Assembly (NCBI GenBank): GCA_018823045.1 | Contig: JAHJIX010000013.1 | Span: 21,125 to 85,124, forward strand | Direction: 5' to 3' | Source of the DNA: Patescibacteria group bacterium | Lineage (GTDB): Bacteria; Patescibacteriota; Patescibacteriia; Magasanikbacterales; UBA922 | Length of the DNA: 64,000 bases | The notes under the pieces: model-generated | Databases searched by the model: none | Seen by the model: the letters and a program-made list of their open reading frames with translations, nothing else | What the model was told of the DNA's origin: nothing | Program-made: the position numbers and the translations under genes | Part shown: positions 149 to 61,088 of the stretch, in pieces | Numbering within the stretch: position 1 is the stretch's first letter | How the letters are laid out: every line of letters begins with the position of its first letter

Positions 149-186
149 ACGCACACATATTACTTTAATTCTATACATACCGCTCT

Positions 187-468
187 ATGGCACATAAAAA
201 GGCGGGTGGATCCACCAGGTTGGGCCGTGATTCCAATCCACAGTATCTTGGTACGAAAATCAGTGATGGTCAAGCAATCAAGACAGGAATGATCATTGTA
301 AGACAACGTGGTACAAAAATTTACCCAGGAAAAAATGTCAAAAAAGGAAAAGATGACACATTGTATGCAACAGCTGCAGGTGTTGTTAAATTTACTAAAA
401 CAAAAACAAAACGTTTTAATGGTAAATTAAAAATGAGAACATTTGCCAATGTTGCCATTACAGAGTAA
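187..468 (+). CDS. rpmA: 50S ribosomal protein L27
   Basis: 93 aa. N-terminus [22 protein letters not shown] is the canonical L27 signature. Confidence 0.95.
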
Positions 469-482
469 CATTTCTTCACATA

Positions 483-519
483 AAAAAACAATCCCGATTT
501 AATCGGGATTGTTTTTTTA
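483..519. terminator. bidirectional rho-independent terminator between rpmA and the mazG-like gene
   Basis: Perfect hairpin aacaatcccgatt/aatcgggattgtt flanked by A and T runs. Confidence 0.7.
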
Positions 520-529
520 TGCAAATAGT

Positions 530-865
530 CTAGTAAACCCGCTCTGCAATTTTATCCATTTTTCTTTCTAGTGCAGAAACAATATCAATATCCATGTTTT
601 TGGCAAGTAAACATGTTGTAATGAGCACATCGGCAAATTCATCAGCTAATGCGCCACTCTCTTTTGCTAATTTTTCTTTTCGTTGATATCCATGACTTCT
701 CAACACTTCTTGTGATAATTCTCCTAATTCTTCTGTAATCTTTGCAACCATTGGAAAATCAAGTACCTGCTTTCCTCCTTCATCTACCTGATAATATGCT
801 AACAATCGTTTATGCTCTGTATTGATAAATGTTAAAAAATCCTGCATATTCATATGCCAATTCAT
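530..865 (-). CDS. MazG-like nucleotide pyrophosphohydrolase (small all-alpha NTP-PPase)
   Basis: 111 aa. EExGEL-type motif (ITEELGELSQEV) and ADEFADVL are typical of the MazG/YpjD NTP pyrophosphatase fold. Confidence 0.7.
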   Translation of the reverse strand: MNWHMNMQDFLTFINTEHKRLLAYYQVDEGGKQVLDFPMVAKITEELGELSQEVLRSHGYQRKEKLAKESGALADEFADVLITTCLLAKNMDIDIVSALERKMDKIAERVY

Positions 866-4437: not shown

Positions 4438-6888
4438 TTATGGTACTTCTCGAATAGCAACATTATCAATAGCAATCAGCCCATTACGTACCCCAAATAC
4501 AATACGCAAATCATCAGTGTCTTCGTCAACAGTAAATGTACGACTATACGACTCCATTCCATTACGAGTCTTTGGGAAGAAATCATAACGATATTCAATA
4601 TCACTATTTGATTTATGATTACCAATAAAGGCTTTCATTTGCCCACTATCACGATAGTAATCAAAACTAAACTCATACGTTTTTCCGGCTTCAACAGAAA
4701 TTCCTGTTTGTTGAAATCCTCCACTCGTCTCTAAAGCATTTACCACCATTTGTTGACGTGTTGCTGGATTAACCCATAATGAATGACTAAATAGCTGATT
4801 TGGTCCCCAACTACGCCATGCATCATGTGGATTCAACCACTCAATATTACCATCAACAACGAGATTTGTTGTATCATGAGGTGTAATAAATATATCATCG
4901 AGAGAAAATTCAGCATCTTTTCCATTAATCACTAAACGAAAATCTGTTGAACTTGGTGCTATAAATACACGATGATACTCTTTCCATTCACCATTGGTAG
5001 GATAAACACGATCATTATTTCCTTCAAAATCTCTATTTGAATCATTATCACCTAAACGTGGATAAATTCTTCCACTCTCTAATTTATATTTAAATTTCAA
5101 TTCATACGTTTCACCAGGGATCACATTCAATCCACGTTGTTGTACACCTGAAGAAGTTCCTCTTGCATCAACATACATTTCTCCTGATTCTTGATATAAC
5201 TTAATAGGATGACCATAACGAACCCAACGTCTCATTTCTGTAATATCATTTGATGTTGGTTCTGGAAGAAATAAATTCGAGTTAAATAATACATCATTAT
5301 CTAAAACGACATGCCCTTGTAATTGCCCACTATATACATATAACTGAGGAAATCCAGGATTTGATACCTCACCTAAATATACTCTATTTAAACTCATAAC
5401 TTCTCCATGTGATCCAATACTATATTGCGCATAATTTCCCTTATCTCGCACAGCCAAAAACTCACCATTATCATCCTGCATAGTCCATTTGCCGTGATCA
5501 ATCAACACAAGTTTTCCATTATATTCTTGTATATAGGGATTTTTTAAACTATTTTCTACAATATAAGCACTTCCAGTATTTGCAACTGGGTCACGTTGCA
5601 ACAAATGATGTATACCAGATTGACTATAATATAATGCATTTGTACCAACAAATACATATGGTCTACCGATCTCGGCTAATTCAAATGAAGTCAACTTTGT
5701 TGTTCCTTGTCCTAATCTTGCTAAATTTAAATGAAGCATAGAGTCATCATCCCATGTTGTTCCATATACAACAATAGGCTCTGCATATTGATTATATTCT
5801 CCAATAGCAAATGTCGATTTAAAAATTGACTCTTCATTTGGAAGAAATAATGCTTCAGTATTTACGATAACATTATTAACAATAGTTTCTACAAATAATT
5901 GTCCTGTAGCACCTTTATCTTCCCAAAGCACATAGACCTCTCCATTATCAGTCACATATAACTCTGCTGTATGAAATTGAGTAATATACTCAATATTTGA
6001 AGAAAGAGACGCAATTTTTAAAGGAGCAGCCCAAGCACCTGATACATAAGAGCTATAATATACTCCTAAATTATCCGTATCAAGTGGAGTATAATATTCA
6101 TCAGGATATAATACCCACATTATATGTTGATTTCCTGCATCATCTAATCTAATTTGGAATTGTGCAATGGCTAAATCACCACCAATACTCGCATAATCAT
6201 ATACCAATTCAGCATCACTCCAATTTCCTTGAATGTTACGAATCTTCGTATACAATTTTTCACCTGTTTTATAAACAAGATGATAATTTCCTTCATCGTC
6301 AAACACACCATCATAACGCAAATCCCAACCTTCTCCTGGAATTTGTTGCTCAGGAATAGTTGCTGAATTCCAAACCATTTGATCATATGAATAACCTTCA
6401 ATCATTTCAACATCACCAATATCAATCGTTTCTACTCCAGAACCATCTGTAACAGGTTCAGCAATAACAGTATATGATGAACTCGCAGTTTCTCCATCTA
6501 CAATAGGGCCATCAACAGGCTCCCCATCTAGATACAGTTGCATTCCTGTAAAATCAGGTGTTTCTTCTTGACCATCAATAATAAGGCTTTCAACAACAAC
6601 TTCCTCATCTCCTGAATCAGCAGTAATAGCAAATATTACTTCACCACCTGTTTCATCTTCTACAATAGGACCATCAACTGGCTCCCCATCAAGAAGGAGT
6701 TGTATTCCTGTTATTTCAGGATCATTTGCATTTGGGTCTTCTACACTAATACCCTCAACAATAACATCTTCATCTGTAGCATCTACAGTGACTGCTAAAG
6801 TCATTTGTGGCACAATAGCTGTTAACACAGTCAAAAATGCGATAATAAGTTTATTCATAACATCTTGTACAAAAAAAACACCATACAC
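4438..6888 (-). CDS. large secreted protein with internal tandem repeat (DGEPVDGPIV modules); hypothetical
   Basis: 816-aa ORF. Signal peptide MNKLIIAFLTVLTAIVPQMTLAVT; the likelier start is the ATG at 6858. Two ~50-aa near-identical repeats; no catalytic motif recognised. Confidence 0.6.
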   Translation of the reverse strand: MYGVFFVQDVMNKLIIAFLTVLTAIVPQMTLAVTVDATDEDVIVEGISVEDPNANDPEITGIQLLLDGEPVDGPIVEDETGGEVIFAITADSGDEEVVVESLIIDGQEETPDFTGMQLYLDGEPVDGPIVDGETASSSYTVIAEPVTDGSGVETIDIGDVEMIEGYSYDQMVWNSATIPEQQIPGEGWDLRYDGVFDDEGNYHLVYKTGEKLYTKIRNIQGNWSDAELVYDYASIGGDLAIAQFQIRLDDAGNQHIMWVLYPDEYYTPLDTDNLGVYYSSYVSGAWAAPLKIASLSSNIEYITQFHTAELYVTDNGEVYVLWEDKGATGQLFVETIVNNVIVNTEALFLPNEESIFKSTFAIGEYNQYAEPIVVYGTTWDDDSMLHLNLARLGQGTTKLTSFELAEIGRPYVFVGTNALYYSQSGIHHLLQRDPVANTGSAYIVENSLKNPYIQEYNGKLVLIDHGKWTMQDDNGEFLAVRDKGNYAQYSIGSHGEVMSLNRVYLGEVSNPGFPQLYVYSGQLQGHVVLDNDVLFNSNLFLPEPTSNDITEMRRWVRYGHPIKLYQESGEMYVDARGTSSGVQQRGLNVIPGETYELKFKYKLESGRIYPRLGDNDSNRDFEGNNDRVYPTNGEWKEYHRVFIAPSSTDFRLVINGKDAEFSLDDIFITPHDTTNLVVDGNIEWLNPHDAWRSWGPNQLFSHSLWVNPATRQQMVVNALETSGGFQQTGISVEAGKTYEFSFDYYRDSGQMKAFIGNHKSNSDIEYRYDFFPKTRNGMESYSRTFTVDEDTDDLRIVFGVRNGLIAIDNVAIREVP

Positions 6889-18391: not shown

Positions 18392-19690
18392 TTACGGTTT
18401 TAAACGATTCACCGTACGAGGAAATGGGATACACTCCCGAATATGCGCAACTCCTGACATCCAGCGCACCATACGCTCAAGTCCAATACCAAATCCTGAA
18501 TGTGGTACTGATCCATATTTTCGCAAATCGGTATACCAAGAATATTCTTTCTCATCAAGCCCATCTTCACGAATACGCTCTAACAATAAATCAAAATTAT
18601 CTTCACGCTGTGATCCACCAATAATTTCACCAGCGCCTTCAATACCAATTAAATCATCGTTTAACACATGCGCAGAATCTTCTGGATCAATTTTCATATA
18701 AAATGGCTTGATATTCTTTGGCCATTTTTCAATAAACACAGGAACATCTGAATCTTTTGTTAAAAGTCCTTCATCATCATTTCCTAAATCTTCACCAAAT
18801 TTGATGTCGCTCCCCAACTCATGCAATTTTTCAATCGCTTCTGTATAGGTATAACGAGTAAATGGCTTATCTACCACAGCTTGAAGTGGCGTAACATCTC
18901 GCTCTAATATTTCAAATTCTTTTGTACAATTCTTTAAACAAGACGCTACAATATGTTTTACTAATCCTTCTTGCAAGCCCACATTTTCATCATGCTCAAC
19001 AAAAGCTGCTTCTGCATCCATCATCCAAAATTCTGTTAGATGTCGTTTTGTGACACTTTTTTCTGCACGAAATACTGGCCCAAAATCATAACAACGCCCA
19101 ACTGAACCAATTGCTGCTTCAATATACAACTGCCCTGATTGAGATAAAAAGGCTTCTCCCAAATCAAAATATGGCACTGGGAATAAATCAGTCGTTCCTT
19201 CACAGGCATTTGGCGTAAAGATTGGAGAGTCTGTACGGATAAAATGCTCTTGGTGCAAATACTCGTTAATGGCAGTTTCTACTACATCGCGAATACGCAA
19301 AATTGCCCATTGCTTTTTACTACGCAACCACAAGTGACGATGCTCCATTAAAAAGTCTGGACCATGTTCTTTGTTGCCAATTGGGTACTCTTCTGCAATA
19401 TGGATAAGTTCTATACTCGTCACTTGTAATTCAAAGACTCCCTCTTTTTTAGGGTGTGCACTTATTGTACCCATAAGTGCAACTGAAGACTCTTGCGTTA
19501 CTTTATTTACCAGCTCCCAACTTGCCTCATCGACATCTGACTTCACAATCACGGCCTGCATAAAGCCACTGCCATCACGCAACTGAATAAAAGCAATTGA
19601 GCCACTTGAACGAATGTTTGCTACCCAACCCTTCATGGTAACGACTTGGTCAACATGTGCTGCGGCATCTGTAATAAATGTTTGTTTCAT
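18392..19690 (-). CDS. asnS: asparaginyl-tRNA synthetase
   Basis: 432 aa; class IIb; motif 2 FRAEKSVTKRHLTEFWMMDAE is AsnRS-specific. Confidence 0.9.
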   Translation of the reverse strand: MKQTFITDAAAHVDQVVTMKGWVANIRSSGSIAFIQLRDGSGFMQAVIVKSDVDEASWELVNKVTQESSVALMGTISAHPKKEGVFELQVTSIELIHIAEEYPIGNKEHGPDFLMEHRHLWLRSKKQWAILRIRDVVETAINEYLHQEHFIRTDSPIFTPNACEGTTDLFPVPYFDLGEAFLSQSGQLYIEAAIGSVGRCYDFGPVFRAEKSVTKRHLTEFWMMDAEAAFVEHDENVGLQEGLVKHIVASCLKNCTKEFEILERDVTPLQAVVDKPFTRYTYTEAIEKLHELGSDIKFGEDLGNDDEGLLTKDSDVPVFIEKWPKNIKPFYMKIDPEDSAHVLNDDLIGIEGAGEIIGGSQREDNFDLLLERIREDGLDEKEYSWYTDLRKYGSVPHSGFGIGLERMVRWMSGVAHIRECIPFPRTVNRLKP

Positions 19691-19827
19691 AATATGTATA
19701 ATTAAGTATATCTAGGTTATCATAGTATTCTCTATTTCTCAAGAGAGTTATTTTATTATCTGATGTTATTTATTCGACACTAATGAAGTGAACACTTGTT
19801 TACTCGGCGCAATGAAGTGGAGCCGAG

Positions 19828-19900
19828 CTCCTTGACCAGGACTTGAACCTGGAACCTACTGGTTAACAGCCAGTTGTTCTACCAATTGAACTATCAAGGA
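19828..19900 (-). tRNA. tRNA-Asn(GTT)
   Basis: Reverse complement TCCTTGATAGTTCAATTGGTAGAACAACTGGCTGTTAACCAGTAGGTTCCAGGTTCAAGTCCTGGTCAAGGAG. Anticodon loop CTGTTAA (anticodon GTT); T-loop TTCAAGT. Confidence 0.85.
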
Positions 19901-19998
19901 ATATTGTAATTACCATCTAGTGTCGAAATAGAACCAGTTATCCTCTCGTTCTATCTCCGCCCAATGCGGATCCGCCTTGGGCGGAAAGGAATACATAC

Positions 19999-20035
19999 AA
20001 AAAACCGCCTCGATTAGGCGGTTTGTATATTTTTT
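19999..20035. terminator. bidirectional intrinsic terminator (3' of ORF 20168..21769)
   Basis: ccgcctcgattaggcgg hairpin followed by a T-run. Confidence 0.7.
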
Positions 20036-21879: not shown

Positions 21880-22596
21880 CTAGACACCCCCAAAGTAAAT
21901 ATCTTTTATTTTTTTACTTTTCAATATCTCTTTACCACCTACTAAAGCAACCGTTCCGTTCTCTAAGATATATGTCTTGTCAGCTATCTCCACAGCTTGT
22001 TTAGCATTTTGTTCAACCAAAATCACTGTTACTCCTCGTTTATTTATTTCAACTATTTTGGCAAAAACCTCTTTCATCATCTTGGGCGATAATCCTAAAG
22101 ATGGCTCATCTAATAGTAATAATTCAGGATTTTGAATTAAACTTCGTGCAATTGCTAACATTTGCTGTTGACCACCACTTAATGTTGCTGCATTTTGATT
22201 TTGTTTTTGTTTTAATATTGGAAACTTCCTATAAATATCCTCAATATTTTTGTTTATTAGTTCTTTCTCCTTAAACACAAAAGCCCCCATTTCTAAATTT
22301 TCTTTTACTGTCATATTCGTGAAAACTTGTCTCCCTTGCGGTACATAACTTATTCCAAAGTTAATTAAATCGTAGGTTGGAAGCTTTTTGATATTCTTAT
22401 CTTTAAAAAATATTTTTCCACTATTAATATCACACAAATTAAAAATACTTTTAAGTAAGGTTGATTTACCAGCACCATTAGGACCAATTATCGCTGTTAT
22501 TTCACCTGCAGCAAAAGACATGTCAATCTCCTTGATGACTTGACTCTTATTGTATCCTGATTGTAAATTTTTAATTTTTATCATATTATCCTTCAC
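21880..22596 (-). CDS. livF: branched-chain amino acid ABC transporter ATP-binding protein LivF
   Basis: Walker A GPNGAGKST; signature LSGGQQQMLAIARSL. Confidence 0.9.
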   Translation of the reverse strand: MKDNMIKIKNLQSGYNKSQVIKEIDMSFAAGEITAIIGPNGAGKSTLLKSIFNLCDINSGKIFFKDKNIKKLPTYDLINFGISYVPQGRQVFTNMTVKENLEMGAFVFKEKELINKNIEDIYRKFPILKQKQNQNAATLSGGQQQMLAIARSLIQNPELLLLDEPSLGLSPKMMKEVFAKIVEINKRGVTVILVEQNAKQAVEIADKTYILENGTVALVGGKEILKSKKIKDIYFGGV

Positions 22597-23335
22597 CTAA
22601 ATAAGCTTTCAAAACTTGTTTATTGTTCTTTATCTGCTTAGGAGTTCCTTCAGTTAAAACACTACCTTGATCCAGCACAATAACTCTATCTGCAATTCCA
22701 AGTGTAAAAGCCATATCATGTTCAATAAGCAATATCGTCTCTCCTTGTTTTTTCAAATCAAGAAGAATCTCTGATATTTTAGTTCGTAATTTAGGAGAAA
22801 CCCCAGCAACAGGTTCATCCAGCATTAAAAAGGAATGCGGATTAAGAATTGTTCGTCCTAATTCTATCAATCTTTTCTGACCATAACTTAAATCTTTAGC
22901 TAACACATTTTTAGTTTTTTTCATTCCTAACATTTCTAAAATCTTTTTAACTTTCTGAATTTTATCAGTCTGTTTAGGAGTTTTTGAAAACAAATTAAAC
23001 CAAAACTTAGTATCAGTATTATCTAATGCAAGTAATAAATTATCTTCTACTGTTAGATTTTCAAATAACCTTGCCTTTTGGAACAATCTTGATATACCAG
23101 CATTAGATACTTCTTCAGGAAGTGAATTTGTAATATCTTTCTGATCAAAAAAGATTTTCCCTGTATCAGGTTTTATTACACTAGAAATCAAGTTAAACAA
23201 CGTTGATTTACCAGCCCCATTTGGACCTATTAAAGCAGTAATGGTATTGGGTTCAACCTTAAATGAGCAATTATTTACTGCCTTTACACCTCCAAAGTTT
23301 TTACTTATTTTTTTTATTTTAAGCATATTATTCAA
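22586..23335 (-). CDS. livG: branched-chain amino acid ABC transporter ATP-binding protein LivG
   Basis: Walker A GPNGAGKST; LSYGQKRLIELGR signature. Confidence 0.9.
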   Translation of the reverse strand: MNNMLKIKKISKNFGGVKAVNNCSFKVEPNTITALIGPNGAGKSTLFNLISSVIKPDTGKIFFDQKDITNSLPEEVSNAGISRLFQKARLFENLTVEDNLLLALDNTDTKFWFNLFSKTPKQTDKIQKVKKILEMLGMKKTKNVLAKDLSYGQKRLIELGRTILNPHSFLMLDEPVAGVSPKLRTKISEILLDLKKQGETILLIEHDMAFTLGIADRVIVLDQGSVLTEGTPKQIKNNKQVLKAYLGEG

Positions 23336-28440: not shown

Positions 28441-29037
28441 TTATTCCTCTAATTCTATCCTTCGACGACGTTCATCAAGAGTCTCCCCTTCATACATCCA
28501 ATACACTGTTCCTTGTACTTGATATTGATATCCCAATAGCTTTTGTGCAGAAGCCGAAGGGCTTGTAATTTCTCCATCAAATTCAATCAATCGTTTATCA
28601 ACAACCTTTGCAGTTATATTTTCATCATTAACAAAAACAAGTTCAGCTCCAACAGGTATATTTGCCATTTTAAAATTAAAAACAGATCTTCTTGTACGTG
28701 CTTGATTGAGAGCTTGTTGATCTTCTACCGATTCTACATAATCTTGCTTTGGTGTAACATTTTCTATTTCTGCAAGTTTAAGTGCTGATACCACTCGTTC
28801 AGGAGACAATTCAAAGAACTCTCGATTTGATCGTACTCGTAAATCAAGAAAAGCATCATGAAGTTGTTTTTCTACAAATTGTGAATCACTCACAGTACAA
28901 GCATAAAAACACTCAAAAGGAAGAGGTACACTGGTATTATCAAGAGTACGGATTCGTTGTTCTAAGTTTGTTGTTCGTCCTATTTTGATATAGCCAGGCA
29001 TGGCTTCGTTTATGAGGAGGTAGATTATTTGGGGCAT
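28441..29037 (-). CDS. T5orf172 (GIY-YIG-like, MUG113) domain protein
   Basis: IYLLINEAMPGYIKIGRTTNLEQRIRTLDNTSVPLPFE matches the T5orf172 core; 10 nt downstream of res. Confidence 0.7.
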   Translation of the reverse strand: MPQIIYLLINEAMPGYIKIGRTTNLEQRIRTLDNTSVPLPFECFYACTVSDSQFVEKQLHDAFLDLRVRSNREFFELSPERVVSALKLAEIENVTPKQDYVESVEDQQALNQARTRRSVFNFKMANIPVGAELVFVNDENITAKVVDKRLIEFDGEITSPSASAQKLLGYQYQVQGTVYWMYEGETLDERRRRIELEE

Positions 29038-60510: not shown

Positions 60511-61039
60511 TCTTTTTTCTGCAGATGATCGCTTGAGCCTATATGGCTTGAGAGGAAAGTCCGAACTTCCTCTGACTTGTCAGAGTCATGGTAGTGGCTA
60601 ACGACCACCTCTCTATTTGTGAAAATATGAGACGGGAAAGTGCCGCAGAGACTATACTCGTTTTGCATAACAAAACGACCCTGAGTCTGCCGAAGGGTTT
60701 CAACCAATCGAGCAGAAGCATTATATCAGAGTTATTTTGTTATGCAAGACAAAAGGTGAAAAGTGTAGAGATATTTTTATTCTATAGATAAAAGTTACTC
60801 TACTCGATTATATGGCAACATATAATTGTGGTAAACCCTACCTGGAGAAAGAGCAGCCTTGGCTTCACTTCATTACGCCTCGTTTACAAAACGTAGCATA
60901 GATGCACTGTTTACAGGGCGCAATGAAGTGAAGCCCTGGAAAAGTTCGCTCGTTAGAGCAAAATAGCAATGTTTTGCCTAGAGAAATGATCATCACCTGC
61001 ATAGCAGGAACAAAATTCGGCTTATAGCAGAAAAAAAGA
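60511..61039 (+). ncRNA. rnpB: RNase P RNA (type-B-like features) carrying a long expansion hairpin
   Basis: P4 strands GAGGAAAGTCCG (60551) and ACAAAATTCGGCTTATAGC (61007-61025); GGGAAAGTGCCGCAGAG module (60643); P1 pairing cttttttctgc / gcagaaaaaag; own promoter and terminator (61041-61076). Confidence 0.8.
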
Positions 61040-61088
61040 CAAAAAAGCAGCAAAATAGTAATTTGTTGCTTTTTTGTACACAAAAGAA

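Follow-up and report, generated by a model that had tools for sequence, protein, structure and literature searches.

A hairpin repeat at tRNA ends and within RNase P RNA of Candidatus Magasanikbacteria

Genomes of CPR/Patescibacteria measure roughly 1 Mb and are thought to be almost free of repeats, and the Magasanikbacteria are uncultured bacteria with tiny genomes. In the 64,000-nt stretch of DNA from a Patescibacteria group bacterium analysed here (the window), a motif that directly adjoins the tRNA-Asn gene recurs inside rnpB, the gene for RNase P RNA. Is this similarity more than chance and, if so, what kind of element would be found both behind a tRNA and within RNase P RNA? The motif belongs to a family of imperfect hairpins with covarying stems that occurs in several genomic contexts and is present or absent between relatives. 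The window holds one intact and one decayed unit after tRNA-Asn, and one inverted doublet that constitutes a long extension of helix P16/P17 in rnpB (Table 1).

The motif behind tRNA-Asn and its match in rnpB

When a 71-nt query was compared with the window by BLASTN, the two loci matched over 28 nt with 89% identity (34 bits; E = 1.4e-4), the 3' arm in rnpB aligning with positions 19797-19824. When dinucleotide-shuffled versions of the window were each compared all against all, an off-diagonal match of at least 34 bits turned up in 24 of 25, so that the similarity within the window alone is not above chance. The original prediction had argued for selection rather than chance similarity, which the pairwise match does not bear out on its own; the covariation across 20 family members is genuine, and it is only because of related sequences from elsewhere that the motif proved to be real. 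The same sequences support the homology assumed for the two copies. The sequences originally quoted are present, and the loop-proximal stretch, GCAATGAAGTGRA, is indeed identical at 19809-19821 and 60920-60932. The boundaries needed adjustment: with its cacttgttta lead the copy beside tRNA-Asn, given as 19796-19827, starts at 19793, and the rnpB copy, given as 60921-60953, lies inside the gene but about 15 nt further to the left, at 60905-60938.

On the plus strand beside tRNA-Asn the motif reads CTCGGC (19803-19808), gcaatgaagtgga (19809-19821) and GCCGAG (19822-19827), and it stops one base short of the 3' end of the minus-strand tRNA-Asn gene (19828-19900 according to Rfam, 19827-19900 according to ARAGORN). 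The start of this repeat unit 1 is the first trailer nucleotide, right after the discriminator base, and the best-supported reading is that unit 1 is the first structure of the tRNA-Asn trailer. It is matched by covariance model R1 at 19795-19830(-) with 49 bits (E = 3.5e-10), scores 34 bits with nhmmer and is predicted to fold with -11.6 kcal/mol (z = -3.4). No terminator-like structure was called at 19795-19830; unit 1 is devoid of a U-run, and the next sequence is UAAACAAG.

A further copy had been placed at 19786. AATGAAGTG does occur a second time, at 19782-19790 and 29 nt from the other copy, but as part of a decayed second tandem unit that has no stem of its own. In the related contig L005 (GCA_018650085.1; AsnRS 84% identical) three tandem 29-nt units follow tRNA-Asn at the same place as in the window, and together with the decayed unit 2 they explain the further copy.

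tRNA-Asn lies directly upstream of asnS on the same minus strand. The AsnRS of the window is a 100% match to a protein of a 'Patescibacteria group bacterium', and the next-best matches (73-84%) are mostly from Candidatus Magasanikbacteria. Four contigs with identical AsnRS (L001-L004) have a spacer identical to that of the window and are thus uninformative, and in three relatives with 78-79% AsnRS identity (L006-L008) other genes, and no tRNA-Asn, are found upstream of asnS. An arrangement of tRNA-Asn and asnS with a promoter-like site in between is common only to the window and its closest relative, L005, in which the promoter-like stretch is conserved. A perfect 10-nt inverted repeat, TTCGACACTA/TAGTGTCGAA, at 19773-19782 and 19918-19927 brackets tRNA-Asn and unit 1. 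Its chance expectation in the region is about 0.07, it is not conserved in L005, and it could serve the pairing of 5' leader and 3' trailer in the precursor. Upstream of tRNA-Asn, both genomes have a conserved hairpin, AAACCGCCT...AGGCGGTTT, with a T-run after it (20002-20024 in the window; about 2489-2515 in L005), probably the terminator of the upstream gene.

Table 1. Features of the two window loci and genomic contexts of related units
Feature	Position	Strand	Evidence or sequence
asnS (asparagine--tRNA ligase), downstream of tRNA-Asn and the repeat units	18392..19690	-	NCBIfam NF003037, E = 2.2e-157
Promoter-like site between the repeat units and the asnS start codon	19705..19734	-	TAGAGA-18-TATACT; consensus scan, consensus match only
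Repeat unit 2, decayed tandem copy, 29-nt period	19763..19792	-	TTCACTTCATTAGTGTCGAATAAATAACAT; direct repeat AATGAAGTG
Repeat unit 1, intact	19798..19827	-	RNA: CUCGGC-UCCACUUCAUUGC-GCCGAG-UAAAC
tRNA-Asn (anticodon GTT), no encoded CCA	19828..19900	-	ARAGORN; Rfam RF00005, 73.3 bits; sequence
rnpB, bacterial type A RNase P RNA, 528 nt	60513..61040	+	Rfam RF00010, 162.4 bits, with alignment
P15-P16-P17 module	60851..60951	+	GAGC ... GCTC (P15), CC/GG (P16), doublet as extended P17; cmscan, comparison with L021/L022
5' arm of rnpB doublet, sense-type unit	60858..60887	+	CTTGGC-TTCACTTCATTAC-GCCTCG-TTTAC; R1 60855-60890(+), 35.5 bits
Apical spacer of P16/P17 hairpin, unrelated in sequence to L019 spacer	60888..60908	+	Alignment A3; folds
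3' arm of rnpB doublet, antisense-type, motif of the original prediction	60909..60938	+	GTTTA-CAGGGC-GCAATGAAGTGAA-GCCCTG; R1 60906-60941(-), 46.4 bits
L005: tandem trailer units			CTCCACTTCGTTGCGCCGAGTAAACAAGT; CTCTACTTGGTTGCGCCGAGTAAACAAGT; CTTTACTTTGTTGCATAGAGTAAACAAT
L028, L033, L035: rnpB P16/P17			Pattern loci
L030: both spacers of a tRNA-Ala, tRNA-Phe, tRNA-Pro cluster	158-614		Doublets fill the spacers to the nucleotide
L023: adjoining tRNA-Leu(CAA) and parA			
L029: 225 nt upstream of 16S rRNA			
L025, L034: 10 nt upstream of the leuS start codon			
L027, L031: between Band 7 and hrcA			
L024/L032, L026: antisense copies, then U-run			Intrinsic-terminator-like

A family of hairpin units

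An earlier scan of species-representative genomes, which do not include the window's own genome, with the pattern ACTTNNTTGCGCCNNGTAAACA returned only the L005 trailer and chance matches. This pattern required both ACTT and GTAAACA and was too strict, so that the scan is not usable as evidence of absence. Four of its matches, in Anaerolineae/Chloroflexota, represent one conserved stretch that bears no relation to the element beyond the 22 nt of the pattern. The degenerate pattern CTYYACTKSRTTGCGCCNNRTAAAC, which covers all known copies, was scanned against metagenome contigs and matched 13 loci, only a few being estimated to occur by chance; the viral contigs scanned gave no match. The 13 were counted as nine distinct loci, with L024/L032, L025/L034 and L027/L031 judged from their sequences to be the same locus. 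All loci to which the source gives a taxon name belong to Candidatus Magasanikbacteria, and L033 and L035, labelled only 'Patescibacteria group bacterium', have the synteny of rnpB and a sugar-transferase gene in common with the window. L028 and L029 come from one genome, Magasanikbacteria GW2011_GWC2_37_14, where strict copies were found at two places, one in rnpB and the other upstream of 16S rRNA.

Of the independent contexts, about two thirds involve a stable-RNA gene or a gene for an aminoacyl-tRNA synthetase. With respect to transcription, copies are seen in either orientation. This spread over several contexts is in line with the small repeated hairpin module originally suggested as a 'MITE-like' option. 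Arms abut mature tRNA ends to the nucleotide: as in the window and in L005, the trailer units of tRNA-Ala and tRNA-Phe in L030 begin at nucleotide +1 after the discriminator. In L030 the arm stems overlap the first or last tRNA nucleotides, including the encoded CCA of tRNA-Phe. The terminator-like copy in L024 folds with -23.6 kcal/mol (z = -5.6).

No transposase is encoded by the ten ORFs that flank units and that represent small parts of the genomes; their Pfam matches are MazF, LeuRS, TrxB-like, T5orf172, HrcA, Band 7 and ParA, and three have no significant family match. Proteins with a T5orf172/MUG113 domain (GIY-YIG-like) are encoded 8.6 kb from tRNA-Asn in the window (about 28441-29037; L001 654-1250) and 200 nt from the unit in L024 (767-1366), a proximity that is possibly a coincidence. 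On the far side of its unit, L023 carries a diverged 26-nt duplicate of the tRNA-Leu(CAA) 3' end (66-120 and 253-280) about 165 nt from the real tRNA end; it resembles an attL/attR remnant of integration, and parA/parB-like genes are next to it. The window also contains two pairs of diverged direct repeats. The first (22010-22589 vs 22719-23331; 59% identity) corresponds to two adjacent paralogous ORFs, 21880-22596 and 22586-23335, and the second (4533-4787 vs 4962-5213; 61% identity) lies 200-900 nt downstream of tRNA-Leu(CAA).

The structure of the unit was derived from alignment A5, which comprises 20 arms in 36 gap-free columns. A 6-bp stem closing a 13-nt loop, as drawn originally, gives way to an imperfect hairpin of greater length, which has two inner pairs (11-21, 13-19) and a small loop of 3-5 nt (CUKCR), followed by TAAAC. 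The outer stem of three to four pairs (columns 4-6 with 26-28) is variable, pairing being all that is required of it. There is a GGC/GCC clamp, of which a common GTC variant results in a U.C mismatch, and two invariant pyrimidine mismatches (U.C and C.U) are interspersed with the inner pairs. Pair 11-21 is CG, UG or UA and always paired; pair 13-19 is AU and has twice changed to GC. In this 8-pair hairpin 88% of the cells are paired, as compared with only 22-44% in registers slid by 1-3 columns, and the covariation of 0.412 (0.172 in shuffles) was reached by none of 500 shuffles. The original prediction was right in taking the stem differences for covariation, as pairs 5-27 and 6-26 each show seven double changes among the 20 members. 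Moreover, the bases 5' of pattern CTYYACTKSRTTGCGCCNNRTAAAC complement its free NNR in almost every match; since the 5' bases of the outer stem lie outside the search pattern, their complementarity is an independent test.

Single units fold with -10 to -12 kcal/mol. They occur singly, in short tandem arrays, or as inverted doublets folding into a long hairpin. Such doublets are found in the window rnpB and in L019, L027, L028, L029, L030, L033 and L035, with folds of about -50 to -82 kcal/mol (180-nt stretches, flanks included). In the partners of the L027 and L029 units and in the second doublet of L030 a nested hairpin replaces the loop. Loop sequences differ between sense and antisense copies, and in most rnpB arms the wobble pairs are consistent with the strand that is transcribed.

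Copies are few. R1 recognises three arms only in the window (49, 46.4 and 35.5 bits) and none in another 19 kb of this contig, which makes two loci in 83 kb. It detected no extra loci in the flanks of the other matches except the second L030 doublet, and none in 106 kb from L006-L008 and L021-L022. Matches to the strict pattern amount to about one per metagenome contig of 50-190 kb. Two of the three tRNA genes in the window have no unit; at its tRNA-Leu(CAA)/parAB locus no unit follows the tRNA, whereas L023 has one. The unit upstream of leuS is present in L025 and absent from L036 and L037, whose LeuRS belong to the same 90% cluster, and no target-site duplication is definable from filled and empty sites. 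A MazF/PemK toxin gene (6345-6737) lies immediately upstream of the pre-leuS unit in L025; L036 both lacks the unit and has a different upstream gene, so that the unit may have come with the toxin cassette. All four window copies read CATT and those of every other lineage CGTT, which points to a concerted change within the lineage.

An inverted doublet in helix P16/P17 of rnpB

The rnpB gene of the window, which contains cactgtttaCAGGGCgcaatgaagtgaaGCCCTG, owes its length to expansions in P12 and P15-P17 (P16/P17). In relatives the lengths range from 400 to 528 nt (L021, 400; L022, 432; L019/L020, 441; L028, 463; L033, 475; L035, 528). P15-P17 takes up 89 nt in the cmscan alignment as opposed to 40 model positions, and this 89-nt insert sits between model positions ggccAAAU and ggcc. 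It was assigned to helix P16/P17 as a hairpin that lies between both P15 strands and distal to the L15 internal loop, and that has homologous short hairpins in L021 and L022. The second expansion, about 80 nt in P12 (60664-60745), is lineage-specific and has no match to the repeat family; a shorter, partly alignable insert is found in L022, and none in L019, L021, L028, L033 and L035.

Four rnpB genes of relatives (L019-L022) were retrieved by means of the divergent, syntenic sugar-transferase gene that adjoins rnpB. L019 and L020 (transferase 76% identical) also have a long P16/P17 hairpin, and in L021 and L022 (transferase 58%) its place is taken by short hairpins (GCCGAU-UU-AUCGGC and GCC-GCAA-GGC). 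When reverse-complemented, the 3' arm of L019 reads CTCCACTGCGTTGCGCCTGATAAAC and is closely similar to the L005 trailer unit. The doublet is present in five lineages and absent from two. This distribution is patchy: the core identity of the L021 and L022 genes to the window rnpB (0.68-0.72) is the same as that of carriers, and the very divergent L033 gene (core 0.52-0.61) bears the doublet.

An inverted copy had been reported at 60862-60880. There is one, with a single mismatch, at 60864-60876, but its role is that of the pairing partner of the motif within the doublet. Likewise, the small hairpin drawn for rnpB is superseded by the minimum-energy fold, a long helix in which the motif pairs with its inverted partner at 60858-60887 (-45.1 kcal/mol, z = -5.5). 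The P15-P17 segment alone gives -45.1 kcal/mol for the window and -46.5 kcal/mol for L019. By itself the 5' arm of the window is unable to fold (-2.5 kcal/mol), and the long inter-arm helix is therefore the relevant fold in this rnpB. Across rnpB carriers 24-28 of its 30 positions are paired, several via G.U, and the loop differences between the arms are wobble-compatible with it. The two small hairpins are also maintained in the rnpB arms, with double changes favouring the small hairpin in two lineages.

Likeness to known elements and possible roles

At the gathering score Rfam identified only tRNA and RNase P in the window, and for the element in L023, L024 and L030 no family was found at E <= 1; a T-box or known synthetase leader RNA was rejected for want of an Rfam match. 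Inspection spoke against a K-turn or box C/D (tandem G.A pairs in the right geometry are absent), an integron attC site (no RYYYAAC/GTTRRRY cores; the conserved pentamers are internal, not terminal) and parS (no contiguous 16-bp palindrome). Copies are far too few for a DNA uptake sequence, and the resemblance to a tRNA 3' end or T-arm extends over only 7 nt. The G+C-rich stem-loop plus U-run of an intrinsic terminator is formed only by the antisense copies in L024 and L026, not by the window unit. A literature search for the sequence of the element found no paper containing it, and searches on CPR repeats and RNase P insertions yielded nothing specific, the CPR literature found mentioning only unexplained helix extensions of RNase P. 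As far as found, the family has not been described previously, and small dispersed hairpin repeats are apparently new for CPR/Patescibacteria.

The closest described systems are REP/REPIN elements and, reportedly, repeats in cyanobacterial rnpB. Vioque is said to have described, in 1997, STRR heptamers in helix P12 of RNase P RNA from heterocyst-forming cyanobacteria, and Elhai and co-workers reportedly reported small dispersed repeats of 21-27 nt in Nostoc in 2008. Shared features are the very small size of the dispersed repeats, a hairpin with compensatory changes, self-nesting, and tolerance in a peripheral rnpB helix. Phylum, sequence and helix (P12 versus P16/P17) are different, however, and here the inverted doublet is conserved across lineages. 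Rickettsia palindromic elements and Neisseria Correia elements are MITE-like hairpins that measure 100-150 bp, are restricted to species, reach high copy numbers and possess defined terminal repeats as well as target duplications. They too are miniature hairpin repeats tolerated inside functional genes or acting at transcript ends, but none of the properties just listed was observed for the present family. As to MITE features in general, inverted arms are present and L023 has the 26-nt duplicated tRNA 3' end, and at the leuS sites no duplication is definable.

REPINs of Proteobacteria are mobilised by RAYT tyrosine transposases (PMC3116915, PMC3337134). In common with REP, BIME and REPIN elements, the units are imperfect palindromic hairpins of 20-40 nt with conserved mismatches and a conserved motif near the hairpin foot, although the GTTTA(C)/TAAAC found here is analogous to their GTAG in position only. 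The family also shares the occurrence as singlets, tandem clusters and inverted doublets, in which two units with a short spacer between them form a long hairpin; the intergenic location in both orientations, sometimes as terminators; and the frequent combination of two arm subtypes in one doublet, reminiscent of Y and Z REPs in BIMEs. It differs from them by its low copy number in the partial contigs scanned, as opposed to tens to hundreds of extragenic copies per genome, and by a variable outer stem with a conserved inner core, the reverse of typical REPs. It further differs by its strong cross-lineage conservation, by copies inside an essential RNA gene and flush with tRNA ends, and by its host, a CPR bacterium, where no RAYT (Y1 transposase) is found among the ten flanking ORFs, which represent small parts of the genomes. 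For CPR RNase P RNAs, Lui et al. 2021 (PMC8172020) reported 'large extensions of helices' and a P15 that is extended, and the UGG motif that binds CCA was often missing. The window rnpB fits this description. In that study the extensions were not linked to a genome-dispersed repeat, whereas the P16/P17 extension described here consists of two family units.

We hold with moderate confidence that the motif is a unit of a low-copy dispersed imperfect-hairpin repeat of Candidatus Magasanikbacteria with REP/REPIN/BIME-like architecture. We infer that the unit is mobile, by way of a hairpin-specific transposase or template switching, and that as a transcript-end hairpin it may contribute to RNA stability or to termination; a role in stable-RNA maturation is possible. 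According to this proposal the unit would be copied to new sites at low frequency, preferably to the feet of existing hairpins or the ends of stable-RNA genes, either by a hairpin-recognising single-strand transposase or through template switching or gene conversion between copies. It would be retained at sites that tolerate an additional helix without harm, for instance in tRNA spacers, in untranslated regions or at the tip of a peripheral helix of the ribozyme. When transcribed it would form a stable stem-loop at transcript ends, serving as a terminator if a U-run follows and otherwise as a barrier at the 3' or 5' end. Against a purely selfish repeat count the low copy number, the strong conservation of the core between lineages and the clustering at stable-RNA and synthetase genes with arms flush with mature tRNA ends; function, and not a preference for insertion there, could be the reason for this clustering. 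The dispersed-repeat reading is also weakened by the lack of a definable target-site duplication, of a transposase among the ten flanking ORFs scanned and of a U-run behind unit 1 of the window.

Conceivable, if rather unlikely, is a functional hairpin that a protein recognises in trans, such as a nuclease that processes stable RNAs or a chaperone of their maturation. The mismatched inner stem and the loop would then be the recognition surface, the outer stem would need only to pair, and copies at RNase P RNA, in tRNA spacers and in 16S and synthetase leaders would be kept by recruiting the same factor. The combination of a conserved core and an outer stem that covaries is classic for hairpins bound by a protein. 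The core is conserved at 13-19 of 19 positions across rnpB genes whose own cores are only 52-75% identical; its conservation exceeds that of the surrounding rnpB and agrees better with a functional motif recognised in trans than with a parasite subject to drift. The enrichment of contexts for rnpB, tRNA, 16S, asnS and leuS, the low copy number, the strand fit of the wobble pairs and the location of the two strict copies in GW2011_GWC2_37_14 also favour such recognition. It is difficult to reconcile, however, with the use of both orientations, the loops differing by strand, with the missing pre-leuS unit in a relative of the same LeuRS cluster, with the dispensability of the rnpB doublet in L021 and L022, and with two other tRNA genes of the window that have no unit. 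The decayed tandem units and the variants with a nested hairpin resemble the dynamics of repeats more than they do a binding site that is fixed, and no candidate binding protein was identified.

Loop L15 of type A RNase P binds the tRNA 3' end, and the doublet in P16/P17 adjoins this loop. Docking of the precursor on RNase P RNA would have the sense hairpin of a trailer (or the antisense hairpin of a leader) pair with the complementary P16/P17 arm by kissing or strand exchange. That the arms act in this manner is improbable in our view, and equally improbable is that the substrate is thereby tethered beside L15, replacing a missing CCA-L15 contact. We are just as doubtful about an RNase P RNA with a built-in guide, whose P16/P17 arms would be complementary to hairpins exactly at the ends of certain pre-tRNAs and in 16S and synthetase leaders; if true, nature would have its own version of the engineered guide-linked RNase P. 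Consistent with docking, the tRNA-Asn gene lacks CCA and the 3' strand of L15, AAAAGUUC, contains no GGU, the UGG motif being absent from most CPR RNase P RNAs (PMC8172020). The +1 position of the trailer units in the window, L005 and L030 would suit it as well, as would the window-specific CATT common to the trailer and both rnpB arms and a duplex of trailer and 3' arm at -43.4 kcal/mol, compared with -40.5 kcal/mol for the native 5' arm. By contrast, RNAduplex pairs the window trailer better with the L035 arm (-47.1 kcal/mol) than with its own, and co-evolution of a trailer with its own rnpB arm was rejected, as the energies show no own-genome preference. Docking is further at odds with the single unit among three window tRNA genes, with copies at protein-gene terminators and spacers in either orientation, with rnpB arms that are locked in a very stable intramolecular helix, and with L021 and L022, which manage without the doublet.

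Chance similarity, or a one-off local duplication without wider meaning, would agree with the shuffled windows and with the two loci in 83 kb of contig but is the least probable explanation, being refuted by the recurrence of the unit, its stems covarying, in relatives (at both sites) and in 13 metagenome loci.

The 36-position covariance model can be used to annotate these elements and to improve rnpB and tRNA-operon annotation in Magasanikbacteria MAGs. The finding raises the choice between a repeat that was recruited into stable-RNA maturation and one that targets those genes for insertion, a question that rests on the exact placement at tRNA ends, in the 16S leader and at pre-synthetase sites and on the high conservation at low copy number. 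For CPR RNase P RNAs, the family accounts for one of their unexplained helix extensions, which consists of two units of a repeat that is found elsewhere too.
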